From the NCBI RefSeq assembly GCF_003334815.1, contig NZ_QOWO01000086.1: 3,095 nucleotides of DNA; one strand, given 5' to 3'. Position 1 is the first letter of the stretch, and every line of letters begins with the position of its first letter. The DNA comes from Escherichia coli. Its GTDB lineage: Bacteria; Pseudomonadota; Gammaproteobacteria; Enterobacterales; Enterobacteriaceae. Below are positions 1 to 3,095 of this stretch, piece by piece. The notes under the pieces were generated by a model that saw only the letters and a list, made by a program, of their open reading frames with translations, was not told the origin of the DNA and ran no database searches. The position numbers and the translations under genes are program-made.

Positions 1-378
1 AATCGCTCCCCTGCGGCGACTCTTGTCATAAGAGTGCCGGAGCGTTTTTCCATCAATTGCAATGACGTCTTTATCATCTGAAGAATGGCAGTCACGCATC
101 CAGTTAATAAAGCACTCGTGAAATTTTGCAGGACTGATACAGGATACAACTCTGGCAATGGTATCGTGAACAGGAATACCATTTTCAAAATCACCATATT
201 GCTTCAAAAAATCGGGATGTGTTTCCCCAAAATCCTCTATATCTTCCCAGCCTTCTGCACCAGAAATAACGGCACAAATAGTCAACAGTAGAATATCCGA
301 TAACTTATGTTCCATTTTCCAGGCTTGTCTGTAATCGGGGATAATAGAAATATGTCCCATCAATTTTTTAAGTTCCAT
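1..378 (-). CDS. ISAs1-family transposase (H-repeat-associated protein), N-terminal 126 codons; the rest of the gene lies beyond the window start
   Basis: Absent from the ORF track because there is no stop in the window. ATG at 378-376 is preceded by AAGGAG (plus 385-390) with a 6-nt spacer, and the frame is open to position 1. My hand translation: [126 protein letters not shown]. This is colinear with the N-terminus of the 862..1608 ORF at about 60% identity by hand alignment. It matches my memory of E. coli H-rpt (YhhI-type) ISAs1 transposases; not searched. Confidence 0.85.
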
Positions 379-463: not shown

Positions 464-1608
464 TTAAACATAAAATGCGAATTGTTTAGTACAAAAAGTG
501 AACTTCTGATGATCTTTCCCTGTGTTTAACGCAGCCTTCTTTCTTTTCCTCTTCACCCTTAATGTCTTTGCAATCTCTTAATAAATTCAGTGCCATCTTC
601 TTTATTCCAGATATTATTTAGGCTGCGTTTCCTCTTCTTATCCGGCTGGCATCTTCATTCATTTTTACATCTAACACCCAATGAAGACTGTGCTCGATCA
701 GCCAGTGCGCTCTGATAGCATGTGCAAATTCTTTAGCATCCATATCCTTTGATGAAATATAATATCGGATGCTTACACCTTCTGCTGATTTATCTTCTTT
801 CTTCTGCCTGAATGACAATGCTACACAAAGCTTTTTTAATCCCTTCCATTCGAATTCAAAATCACAAAAGTTCAGGCGTTACGTTACTGACAATATGCAA
901 ACGTGTTTCTTTTCTTCCATGACTTATCTCCTGCGTACTAAACGAATCGCCTTTATAATTAGAAAACACATTTACAGGAAATTTTTCCTCGAATGCATGA
1001 TGTAATTTCCCCTGATTGCCTTTTACTGCCAGAAGATAATCTGCTTTTTTATCTTTGATCTTCGAAGCGATATCTTTCTGACAGCCCATAGCATCAATGG
1101 TTATCAAATTTTTCTTTAAATACAGTAGGTTAAGCAACTCTGGAATGGCTGTAATCTCATTACTTTTGGCTTCCGTTTTCACCTGCCCCAGTACAACACC
1201 ATTTTCGTTCGAGAATGCACTCACCATATGGATTGCTCCTTTTCTTTTTCCCTTATCAAAGGAGCCTCTTATGGTCTTTCCATCTATTGCTATAATTTCA
1301 CCATCAGTGATTTCATGGCACTCCTGCATCCATTCAATAAACATCTTTTCAAAGGCCAAACTGTCAATGTTACTCACAACGCGTGCAATGGTGTCATCGA
1401 CCGGAATGCCATTATCAAAATCACCATATTTCTTTAGCCATTCAAGTCTTTCATGTCCAAAATCTTCAATTTCCTGCCACTCATCGGCACCTGCAATTAC
1501 TGCACATACGGTGAGAAACAAAATAGCAGATAATTTATGTTTAACCTTTCCTTGTTGTCGTATATCAGGGGTCACTGAAATATAATCAAGCAGACTTTGA
1601 ATACTCAC
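464..1608 (-). pseudogene. ISAs1-family transposase (H-repeat-associated protein), disrupted: +1 frameshift near 861-864, in-frame TAA at 618-620, second frameshift near 555-560
   Basis: Track ORF 862..1608 (248 aa, MSIQSLLDYISVTPDIRQQGKVKHKLS...) is the N-terminal two thirds; the start is GTG at 1608 with AAGGA 6 nt upstream. After TPELL the protein continues in the +1 frame as [25 protein letters not shown]...[29 protein letters not shown] (track ORF 618..818, whose reported M is a TTG). This is interrupted by TAA at 618-620 where homologs have Glu. The same frame then reads IISGIKKMALNLLRDCKDIKG. A further frame change gives VKRKRKKAALNTGKD... and a stop at 464-466. Total span is about 381 codons, matching a full-length ISAs1 transposase of roughly 378 aa (length from memory). 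Confidence 0.8.
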
Positions 1609-1683
1609 CTGGCGTCCTTTTTTATCTTTTTAGTTATTCCAAAGGTTAAATTTTGATCACCTGTAGGCGTTAAAGCAAAGATG

Positions 1684-1709
1684 AAAATCGTGATTTACAT
1701 CACAATTTT
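1684..1709 (-). repeat. Imperfect inverted repeat / hairpin (11-nt arms, 4-nt loop); candidate weak terminator for the rhs-immunity transcript or an IS-end structure
   Basis: Plus strand reads aaaatcgtgat-ttac-atcacaatttt. On the minus-strand RNA the arms AAAAUUGUGAU / AUCACGAUUUU pair fully with one G:U wobble. It lies about 80 nt downstream of the small-ORF stop (1790) and about 75 nt upstream of the copy B transposase start. The stem is AT-rich and the U-run is inside the stem, so it is weak as an intrinsic terminator. Confidence 0.2.
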
Positions 1710-1789
1710 CATGATCTTGCCCTGCCCCGTCCCTTGCTCTCATGTCTTTCTGTATGTATTTTATATTTTTCTCTTTCTGGTGTTGTTCA

Positions 1790-1945
1790 TTATGACCATT
1801 TACCAATCCAGTCAAAAACTTCATTTTTCAAATTGTTATCATAATAATCAACATCATAATAGTCTCCATAATTAATTATTTTATAACTAGCCTTCTTGTT
1901 TTTATCACTAAAATACACCCGTTGTTTTGTAGCGCAGAACTCCAT
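1790..1945 (-). CDS. Small hypothetical protein (51 aa from ATG 1945; 62 aa if GTG 1978 is used); status uncertain, possibly a frameshifted 3' extension of the immunity gene
   Basis: Track ORF 1790..1978; the reported M at 1978 is a GTG. Internal ATG at 1945-1943 is preceded by GGAG (plus 1949-1952, 3-nt spacer). Peptide MEFCATKQRVYFSDKNKKASYKIINYGDYYDVDYYDNNLKNEVFDWIGKWS. It is AT-rich like the neighbouring immunity gene and I see no family resemblance. Confidence 0.3.
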   Translation of the reverse strand: MEFCATKQRVYFSDKNKKASYKIINYGDYYDVDYYDNNLKNEVFDWIGKWS

Positions 1946-1968
1946 ATTCTCCAGTTTACTAATGTTTT

Positions 1969-2271
1969 TTAATCGCACGCTATAAAGAATATCATTGAAA
2001 AATTAAGATTTATATCAACCACTCCACAGTGCGTCCTGTAATTATTAACCATTATACTTATAAAATGACCATTCCCTCTACTAATTTTTTGGTCATTAAT
2101 TATTTTATAAATAATATTTTTTTCAGAAAGATATATCTCAACGCTCTTTGGTGTTTTATGTCCATAAAATACGATGTCAGAATTTGAATTGTTATCAAAC
2201 CCAAGGTAAACAACAAATAAACAAAGGGTAATTAAAAAAATGACAAGTTTGCCTCTAATAATTTGAAGCAT
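1969..2271 (-). CDS. Putative Rhs immunity protein, 100 aa, with N-terminal signal-anchor / transmembrane segment
   Basis: ATG at 2271-2269 overlaps the rhs stop (TAG at 2257-2255) by 17 nt. Strong SD AAGGGAG (plus 2277-2283) with a 5-nt spacer. N-terminus MLQIIRGK + [17 protein letters not shown] is a positive n-region followed by a 17-residue hydrophobic stretch, then a polar run DNNSNSD. The gene is very AT-rich (13/60 G+C in the hand-counted sample 2101-2160). Position directly downstream of an Rhs toxin tip is the canonical immunity location. Confidence 0.6.
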
Positions 2272-3095
2272 CTGAACTCCCTTGCTTTGCTTTTATTGGA
2301 TTATCTGCTTTTATACCATCTAACCCGAAGAGTTGCCCAGTGTTATATTTTTCAATACATGCATCGCTACATTTGGCAGAAAAATCGCCACAAGCAATAC
2401 CGACAGTGTTATTTTTAAGATCCATGATTCTTTCTTTAGCTGGCTGACCTTGTCTATCCCCTGCCGCCTCATGATTTTTACCTATCACGTCAGCTATTGT
2501 TGATCCAAATGTCTTAGTCATTCGACACATCAAGTAACAATGTCTCATTGCATCGGCGGCCCCATTATGAGCTCCGCCAACAATAGCATCCATATCATAA
2601 CCGAACTGGTAAGCACTGTTAGTAATGCTGTTTGCAGCAATCAATCCAGGTACACCAGATACGGCATAAATTAGTCCACCTGATGTCATATTCTCAATCG
2701 CATCTAACCCCATTGGGTCTATCACTTGTATGGGATTCAACGGATACTGATACATATTCCATCCACCTCTCAACCCAATCGGGTCCGGGGTGATATACCG
2801 CCCCTGCAACGGATCGTAGTGCCGGTGACGGTTATAGTACAGCCCCGACTCCTCATCATGCTGCTGCCCTGGCAGACGGTACGGCTGGTGCAGGTGATGC
2901 GGGTTCTCCTCATTAAGCTGGTTGCCCCATTCATCATACTCCCCGCGCCACGCCGTATTGCCGTCTTCGCTGATGAGCGCCAGCGGCAGGCCCCGGTGGT
3001 CGCAGTGGTAAAAATGAACTTTTCGCGCCGGTGTGTATTCCGGCTCCACCTGTCTGGCCAGTTGCTCCACCGTCAGCCCGCACTGCGCAAGCCAC
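2255..3095 (-). CDS. Rhs family protein, C-terminal portion (end of Rhs core plus C-terminal toxin domain); 5' part of the gene lies beyond the window end
   Basis: Track ORF 2255..3070; the reported M at 3070 is an internal GTG and the frame stays open to 3095 (..[15 protein letters not shown]..). Contains the conserved Rhs core end [17 protein letters not shown]...YDEWGN...[56 protein letters not shown], with DPMGL at plus 2705-2719. The G+C-rich core (44/60 in sample 2941-3000) gives way to a lower-GC tip (30/60 in sample 2521-2580). Stop is TAG at 2257-2255. Confidence 0.9.
2258..2704 (-). other. Rhs C-terminal variable (toxin) domain, 149 aa, family unassigned
   Basis: Sequence after DPMGL: [149 protein letters not shown]. 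It has a His/Asp/Cys cluster [16 protein letters not shown] (plus about 2525-2569) and a second Cys cluster [13 protein letters not shown] do not recognise HNH, HExxH, deaminase (H[AC]E..PCxxC) or ART (R..STS..ExE) signatures. Confidence 0.7.

Follow-up and report, generated by a model that had tools for sequence, protein, structure and literature searches.

The rhsE-ydcD-ISAs1 Locus

The 3,095-nt stretch of Escherichia coli DNA analyzed here (the window) is the K-12-type RhsE locus, with the order rhsE-ydcD-ISAs1. At one edge, on the minus strand, lies the end of the Rhs core (2705..3095), a YD-shell plug that runs up to the DPMGL motif (2705-2719), is recognized by NCBIfam and Pfam models and continues beyond the window. 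The C-terminal toxin tip of RhsE follows on the same strand (2258..2704; 149 aa after DPMGL, Pfam DUF6973). The Rhs stop codon (2255-2257, minus strand) sits inside a 17-nt overlap with the start of ydcD at 2271, and ydcD occupies the minus strand down to 1790. On the plus strand, yncO (1690..1875; RefSeq WP_120795385.1) encodes a 61-aa hydrophobic small protein. The remainder is annotated, again on the minus strand, as an ISAs1-family pseudogene (about 464-1608) and as the start of the ydcC ISEc5 transposase gene (1-378). The Rhs core has a GC content of 0.62, against 0.27-0.31 over the tip and ydcD, a drop of the sort that is usual for Rhs tips. A search of the window against Rfam returned zero RNA families, and a promoter scan of 1600-2400 found five candidates where 4.3 are expected from shuffled sequence, which is not above chance.

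The stretch is present at 99% identity or more in about 2,450 of 5,426 complete E. coli genomes. Across all 3,095 nt, the window differs from a J53-derived genome by a one-base deletion and by a substitution at position 1593 (G in the window, A in the J53-derived genome). None of the complete genomes is identical to the window, the best full-length matches carrying a 1-nt gap, and an 80-mer around the private G at 1593 has no exact match among 1,863 genomes.

One Gene in Two Reading Frames

Two open reading frames share the minus-strand interval 1790-2271, and almost certainly both belong to one known gene, ydcD, which a single-base deletion has cut in two. The first (1969..2271) encodes 100 aa and terminates at a TAA (minus-strand 1971-1969). 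As the first-pass annotation had pointed out, this stop lies inside the frame of the next small ORF: the adjacent frame is free of stop codons from 2002 to its own stop at 1790-1792, a run of 70 codons that ends in WIGKWS. This frame has two starts, an ATG at 1945 yielding 51 aa and a GTG at 1978 yielding 62 aa, the latter being the one given in the ORF list. At roughly 28% GC, a stop-free stretch of 70 codons arises in 0.1% of 20,000 shuffles, a frequency too low for the downstream frame to be a chance ORF.

The counterpart in E. coli K-12 is ydcD (b1457), the same gene at the same locus, where it forms one coding sequence of 483 nt and 160 aa annotated as ‘YdcD family protein’ (WP_000939263.1; AG100, J53 derivative). 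Inside this coding sequence, the sole difference between the window and K-12 is one missing T. It falls in a run of six T at coding nt 270-275, over codons N90-F91-F92, which in the window is reduced to five (1998..2002, minus strand; A5 on the plus strand). An indel in a T-run near 2000-2005 had been suspected from the reading frames; the run lies at 1998-2002, and K-12 has one more T. Restoring the T yields a gene encoding 160 aa, the length of K-12 YdcD and the approximate length that had been predicted for the fusion product. The first ORF matches YdcD residues 1-91 and the second residues 92-160, each with 100% identity. On the minus strand, codons 1-91, identical to K-12 ydcD, make up the authentic N-terminal part (1999..2271); an out-of-frame tail, SMIFFIACD, and the premature TAA (1969-1971) follow at 1969..1998; codons 92-160 and the stop lie out of frame at 1790..2002. 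Unlike its K-12 counterpart, the window thus specifies a 100-aa truncated product and an out-of-frame remainder. An identical allele occurs in strains 52F4 and GPEC87-32-644, where RefSeq labels it ‘YdcD family protein, frameshifted.’

Family models give the same picture. The YdcD family is described by the NCBIfam profile NF050020 (YdcD_fam), which has 164 positions and for which the curated threshold is 65 bits. With the T restored, the 160-aa protein reaches 215.3 bits across positions 1-164, above this threshold, while the 100-aa ORF matches positions 1-92 (118.5 bits) and the 62-aa ORF positions 101-164 (70.4 bits). Members of the family are single ORFs of about 160 aa that begin with a hydrophobic helix and end in W(I/L)xKWS, an architecture that the split copy in the window lacks. 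A Pfam search with YdcD found no significant family.

The first-pass annotation had proposed that single-ORF versions of about 160 aa be sought among homologs, and these exist. Homologs at 25-31% identity, retrieved by an exhaustive HMMER search, are single ORFs of 145-165 aa that align to the last residue, and over the whole range of 25-60% identity all homologs are single ORFs ending in WIxKWS. A divergent E. coli allele, P0029 (60% amino acid and 74% nucleotide identity) is also 483 nt long and has no indel. Positions conserved in the alignment of distant homologs are FYG, RGxGxF, C82-G83, F91-F92, L96, C113, W155, W159, and S160. Of these, F91-F92 coincides exactly with the frameshift site, the cysteines C82 and C113 are distributed one to each window ORF, and L96, C113, W155, W159, and S160 are carried by the downstream ORF. 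The tail SMIFFIACD aligns to none of the homologs. A conserved 100-aa protein followed by an unconserved frame would have spoken against the frameshift proposal of the first-pass annotation; the opposite is found, with a Nei-Gojobori omega against the P0029 allele of 0.07 for codons 92-160 and of 0.42 for codons 1-91. The lower value means that the ‘small ORF’ is the more strongly constrained half of the protein, in the fused frame.

The window therefore holds a disrupted member of the YdcD family, which is either a pseudogene or the result of a sequencing error. The feature is a broken copy of a known gene whose product has been solved structurally.

The Break Divides a Single Folded Domain

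YdcD has the double-wing fold known from PDB 8WJ5, an entry titled ‘Double-wing domain of E. coli YdcD,’ in which residues 26-160 form one folded domain that spans the junction between the two ORFs. A literature search found no paper tied to this entry. An AlphaFold2 model built on the homolog alignment (pLDDT 85.9, pTM 0.72) places a transmembrane helix at residues 2-26, followed by a linker and by one alpha/beta domain at residues of about 41-160. The predicted order of elements is H41-50, E55-63, E68-80, E83-92, E95-105, H110-121, E129-134, E138-144, and H146-159. The break falls between strands E83-92 and E95-105, at the turn joining the third and fourth strands, in the middle of the beta-sheet.

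The product encoded in the window consists of 91 authentic residues and nine junk residues (SMIFFIACD). The truncation deprives it of three beta-strands out of six and of two helices, as well as of C113 and the invariant W..KWS end, and for this reason the truncated YdcD, judged against the model, is very probably non-functional. Any re-initiation at ATG 1945 would leave a 51-aa half-domain in the cytoplasm.

The downstream half also contains an Asp/Tyr-rich micro-repeat, YGDYYDVDYYDNN, which had been attributed to a direct DNA repeat. This attribution stands: within the minus-strand gene, the 9-nt repeat ATCATAATA, read on the plus strand, occurs exactly twice with a 15-nt period (1838-1846 and 1853-1861; 1838..1861 in all) and encodes the YYD..YYD of YGDYYDVDYYDNN. 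A general repeat scan did not list the 9-mer, which an exact search recovered; about 0.07 matches to ATCATAATA would be expected by chance, and none of 200 shuffles had two. YYD..YYD maps to the predicted beta-strand 138-144 and its flanks. The micro-repeat is kept in the 60% allele and absent from the homologs at 25-31% identity, a distribution that marks it as a clade-specific beta-hairpin feature.

The RhsE Tip and a Putative Immunity Role for YdcD

The Rhs ORF matches the Pfam families RHS and DUF6973, the latter with an E-value of 1.2e-11 over model positions 17-100 in the tip, as well as the NCBIfam models RHS_core and Rhs_assc_core. A search of PDB sequences with the RhsE tip gave a weak match (E 0.16) to BteO in entry 9UU0. 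The aligned fragment of BteO itself matches DUF6973 (E 3.6e-14, model positions 16-100), the same region as the RhsE tip. BteO is a recently characterized periplasmic effector of the type VI secretion system of Bacteroides fragilis. Its toxicity is confined to the periplasm, its binding partners are OmpA-C-like domains, and a periplasmic immunity protein neutralizes it (PMC12541434). Residues R143, H144, H167, E168, and D191 of BteO are essential for its toxicity (PMC12541434); the RhsE tip has the same residue at all five positions, and an E in place of D187. The residue numbering in this alignment maps exactly onto the interface list of the same study (PMC12541434). By sequence comparison, the RhsE tip can thus be assigned to the same domain family as BteO.

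The toxin domain DUF6973 and the residues essential for toxicity are accordingly common to the RhsE tip and the BteO-BtiO pair (PDB 9UU0, 9UU1). Export to the periplasm or anchoring there applies to both immunity partners, for YdcD as a prediction. The two differ in delivery and in the fold of the partner: the RhsE tip is delivered in an Rhs cage, whereas BteO is a stand-alone effector with a transmembrane helix, and YdcD is a membrane-anchored double-wing protein, whereas BtiO is an OmpA-C-like mimic with a signal peptide. RhsI1 (PDB 6XTD) has no sequence relationship to YdcD and neutralizes a different Rhs toxin tip; set against it, the membrane anchor of YdcD suggests periplasmic action.

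In the window, ydcD follows the toxin tip immediately, shares its strand and overlaps its end by 17 nt, and this overlap is repeated in the 60% allele, behind a tip that has diverged along with it. On an unrelated contig (L020), a DUF6973 ORF sharing 49% identity with the RhsE tip has an 8-nt overlap with a YdcD homolog of 27% identity. Linkage to DUF6973 is found for the homologs at L006 and L020, and two of the four distant homologs have no recognizable DUF6973 neighbor. The ORFs upstream of these two (L021 and L018) have no BLASTP similarity to the RhsE tip, so toxin linkage is documented for L006 and L020 only; the other two may be orphan copies.

Because its gene overlaps rhsE and the tip shares DUF6973 with the periplasm-toxic BteO, we infer that YdcD is a periplasmic immunity protein, most likely that of the RhsE tip by analogy with BteO-BtiO. 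YdcD would consist of an N-terminal membrane helix followed by the double-wing domain, most likely in the periplasm as far as the structural predictions indicate. The clues to this compartment are the predicted transmembrane helix (2-26), the PDB construct starting at residue 26 and the cysteine pair C82/C113. In such a scheme, YdcD would act as the cognate, membrane-tethered partner of the toxin, binding and blocking the RhsE tip in the periplasm. The earlier suggestion of a membrane anchor with a larger periplasmic domain agrees with this architecture, a predicted transmembrane helix plus a domain, for which the periplasm is the probable location. Naming ydcD ‘the immunity gene’ is reasonable as a putative designation, and the kinship of the RhsE tip with BteO gives YdcD a concrete candidate role, that of a membrane-anchored periplasmic immunity protein with a fold unlike that of BtiO.

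The literature searched contains no experimental report of YdcD neutralizing the RhsE tip, nor any functional work on E. coli YdcD, mentions of ydcD being restricted to gene lists or to the unrelated ydcD of B. subtilis. A literature search for DUF6973 found nothing, and rhsE and ydcD are not mentioned in a paper on Rhs evolution (PMC2935791).

Broken ydcD Alleles Among E. coli Genomes

An exact 80-mer with the A5 run is found in two of 2,455 complete genomes, and the corresponding K-12 81-mer is exact in 2,096. The exact 100-aa product occurs on at least 55 contigs of independent assemblies, and the change from T6 to T5 has affected at least two ydcD haplotypes, distinguished by the presence or absence of C344A/T417C. 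For these two reasons, genuine T5 alleles very probably exist. One T5 carrier, a near-complete 4.66-Mb contig (L012), has several further homopolymer indels and looks error-prone. For the deletion in the window, a mutation and a sequencing or assembly error stand at roughly even odds, with a real change slightly favored since the window also has the private substitution at 1593.

A second break affects another homopolymer of the gene. At coding nt 149-155 (plus-strand 2117-2123), a run of seven A is shortened to six, exactly so in 666 of 2,457 genomes, including O157:H7, Ec42 and others, some of them unrelated strains. Like the copy in the window, the O157:H7 pseudogene results from a single-base homopolymer deletion and is labeled ‘frameshifted’ in RefSeq, but a different run is affected, and with 666 of 2,457 genomes the break is far more frequent than that of the window (2 of 2,455). 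In GPEC87-32-644, the T5 and A6 deletions occur together. The gene contains eight runs of at least 5 nt; among E. coli genomes with ydcD, more than one in four have it broken by a homopolymer slip.

What such losses imply depends on the state of rhsE. The K-12 rhsE is annotated as an RHS pseudogene without its N-terminus, and where rhsE is truncated in this way the loss of ydcD should be neutral or tolerated. A full-length RhsE of 1,407 aa stands beside a frameshifted ydcD in at least two strains, Ec42 and L016. This combination is unexpected if YdcD is an indispensable immunity protein against an actively delivered toxin.

Could the Frameshifted Allele Still Be Active?

Is it possible that the frameshifted allele is not null? 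It might allow a low level of -1 slippage to wild-type YdcD, or make immunity to RhsE reversibly switchable. If so, the presence of full-length RhsE beside a frameshifted ydcD in Ec42 and L016 would be explained. Taken together, these routes to residual activity seem very improbable, and each of them is a little less likely by itself.

Reversible switching would make the homopolymer tracts of ydcD an ON/OFF device of an orphan immunity gene, where the preferred reading sees one-way decay. The eight runs of 5 nt or more, two of which are recurrently altered, lend this idea some appeal, as do the appearance of T5 on at least two haplotypes and of A6 in 666 of 2,457 genomes as well as in unrelated strains. 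However, runs of 5-7 nt are shorter than those that contingency loci typically have, the A6 allele is inherited stably through the O157:H7 lineage, and the strain with both deletions, GPEC87-32-644, resembles accumulating decay or sequencing errors. The AT-rich composition alone accounts for the many runs. Phase variation is thus very unlikely.

Recoding fares somewhat worse. Here, a -1 slip of P-site tRNA-Phe on A-AUU-UUU-C, or slippage of the polymerase, would keep the supply of full-length YdcD sufficient. A -1 shift on the U-run does restore the wild-type ...NLNFFNDIL... exactly, and the strains combining an intact RhsE with a frameshifted ydcD are compatible with it. Nevertheless, the in-frame T6 is ancestral and overwhelmingly common (2,096 genomes against 2), all divergent homologs are in frame, and 5 nt is a short run for slippage to be efficient. 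Moreover, there is no X XXY YYZ heptamer in register, a stimulatory structure is not seen, and Rfam is without a match, so that we regard this explanation as scarcely credible.

Just as little can be said for the proposal, raised as an alternative in the first-pass annotation, that the downstream ORF is a separate functional micro-protein of 51 aa (ATG 1945) or 62 aa (GTG 1978), translated alone, for example by termination-reinitiation 24 nt past the stop of the 100-aa ORF. In its favor, ATG 1945 is preceded at a distance of 3 nt by a GGAG, gene callers have annotated precisely this 51-aa ORF on 1,000 contigs or more and the 62-aa one on 35, and the downstream frame is strongly conserved. This conservation, though, is accounted for by the frame being ydcD codons 92-160, and the annotations of the 51-aa ORF go together with the common upstream frameshift of the O157 type and with fragments at contig ends. 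Structurally, the region supplies three strands and two helices to one solved domain, lacks a signal or transmembrane segment of its own and is fused in frame in every non-frameshifted homolog down to 25% identity; at no homologous locus, among all intact homologs, is it a separate ORF with its own start, and M110, the residue encoded by ATG 1945, is not conserved in the distant ones. Re-initiation at this codon could yield a fragment in the mutant, as a by-product of the broken gene.

Annotation and the Antisense Gene yncO

With ydcD read as one interrupted gene, the practical value of the observation lies in quality control of the base at 1998-2002. Standard annotation pipelines already flag a ‘frameshifted’ ydcD pseudogene. 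Caution is needed with ydcD fragments, which sit in databases as separate ‘proteins,’ some of them mislabeled ‘dCTP deaminase.’ For a 61-aa ‘RhsE immunity protein’ of EDL933 (PMC7216683), a truncated YdcD and YncO are the two candidates considered, between which the text of that paper does not decide.

A small gene shares the 3′ end of ydcD. This gene, yncO, runs antisense to it and overlaps its last 86 nt, the shared coordinates being 1790-1875. YncO has been detected by chromosomal epitope tagging (VanOrsdel et al., 2018; PMC6001520), and the sequence in the window is identical to the published protein (PMC6001520, Table 1). The pair ydcD-yncO is listed as an excludon candidate (PMC12288877). 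Encoded on the plus strand, YncO is unrelated to the downstream ydcD ORF and unaffected by the frameshift.

Recurrent frameshifts in ydcD, in two loci beside a full-length toxin gene

The deletion that splits ydcD in the window (the T5 allele) is one of two frameshifts found in this gene. The second site is a coding-strand A7 run at CDS positions 149-155 (plus-strand T7, window 2117-2123), which is intact in the window's own copy and is shortened to A6 in three of the compared loci (L009, L004 and L002, the last from strain Ec42). The A6 allele is much commoner than the window's deletion, being found as an exact match in 666 of 2,457 complete genomes, the O157:H7 lineage among them, so that at least 27% of the genomes with ydcD have it as a pseudogene. 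In two loci a full-length RhsE toxin gene (1,407 aa) adjoins a frameshifted ydcD, which is the A6 allele in Ec42 and T5 in locus L016. Such a pairing would not be expected were YdcD essential for immunity to an active toxin. It may be that the toxin is not delivered in these strains; alternatively, the assignment of YdcD as the immunity protein may be incomplete.

The RhsE toxin tip (window 2258-2704, minus strand) carries a Pfam DUF6973 domain and belongs to the same family as BteO, a type VI secretion effector of Bacteroides fragilis (PDB 9UU0). At five of the six positions essential for BteO toxicity, the RhsE tip has the identical residue. The site of BteO action is the periplasm, where its targets are OmpA-C-like domains (PMC12541434), and this likeness suggests a target and a compartment for RhsE, an uncharacterised E. 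coli Rhs toxin.

Deposited ydcD products

In public records, ydcD fragments of 24-100 aa from frameshifted or contig-truncated copies are deposited as separate proteins, many of them under the name "dCTP deaminase." No support for that name was seen, YdcD_fam being the sole family given by Pfam and NCBIfam, and it looks like a propagated misannotation. In an in-silico study of EHEC EDL933 (PMC7216683), the RhsE immunity protein is given as EDL933_2188, with 61 aa and a lipoprotein signal. This is also the length of YncO, encoded antisense to ydcD, and ydcD is frameshifted in O157:H7; a fragment, or an ORF of the wrong strand, may therefore underlie the assignment.

The antisense gene yncO and the downstream region

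The yncO gene (window 1690-1875, plus strand) crosses the 3' end of ydcD in antisense and encodes a hydrophobic small protein from a GTG start, with an in-frame ATG at 1681. The His/Asn-rich tail of YncO, YHNNQHHNSLHN, is the Asp/Tyr micro-repeat of YdcD read antisense. YncO has been detected by SPA tagging (PMC6001520) and the ydcD-yncO pair has been listed as an excludon candidate (PMC12288877); the M-initiated 61-aa string had no exact match in the protein collection. A near-perfect 32-nt palindrome (window 1681-1712; ATGAAAATTGTGATGTAAATCACGATTTTCAT on the minus strand), with a 14-bp stem and a 4-nt loop, lies 78 nt downstream of the stop codon of ydcD, overlapping the start of yncO. It was marked as terminator-like in a scan, yet contains just three G-C pairs.

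Two tandem ISAs1-family (H-repeat) elements follow ydcD, both on the minus strand: a proximal pseudogene (window 464-1608) interrupted by a frameshift and by an internal stop, leaving ORFs at 862..1608 and 618..818, and the distal ISEc5 transposase gene ydcC (window 1-378). In L006, the contig with the 60%-identical ydcD allele, the place of ISAs1 after the gene is taken by a 215-aa ORF with a DUF4329 domain and an ORF of 100 aa (L006 1003-1949), which look like an orphan toxin-immunity module; this contig lacks the 5' half of yncO.

At 1593, close to the beginning of the ISAs1 pseudogene, the window carries G against A in all compared loci, and the 80-mer around this G was matched exactly in none of 1,863 genomes. 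On the minus strand the change gives CTG versus TTG (Leu). Apart from this base and the ydcD deletion, the window does not differ from a J53-derived K-12 genome.
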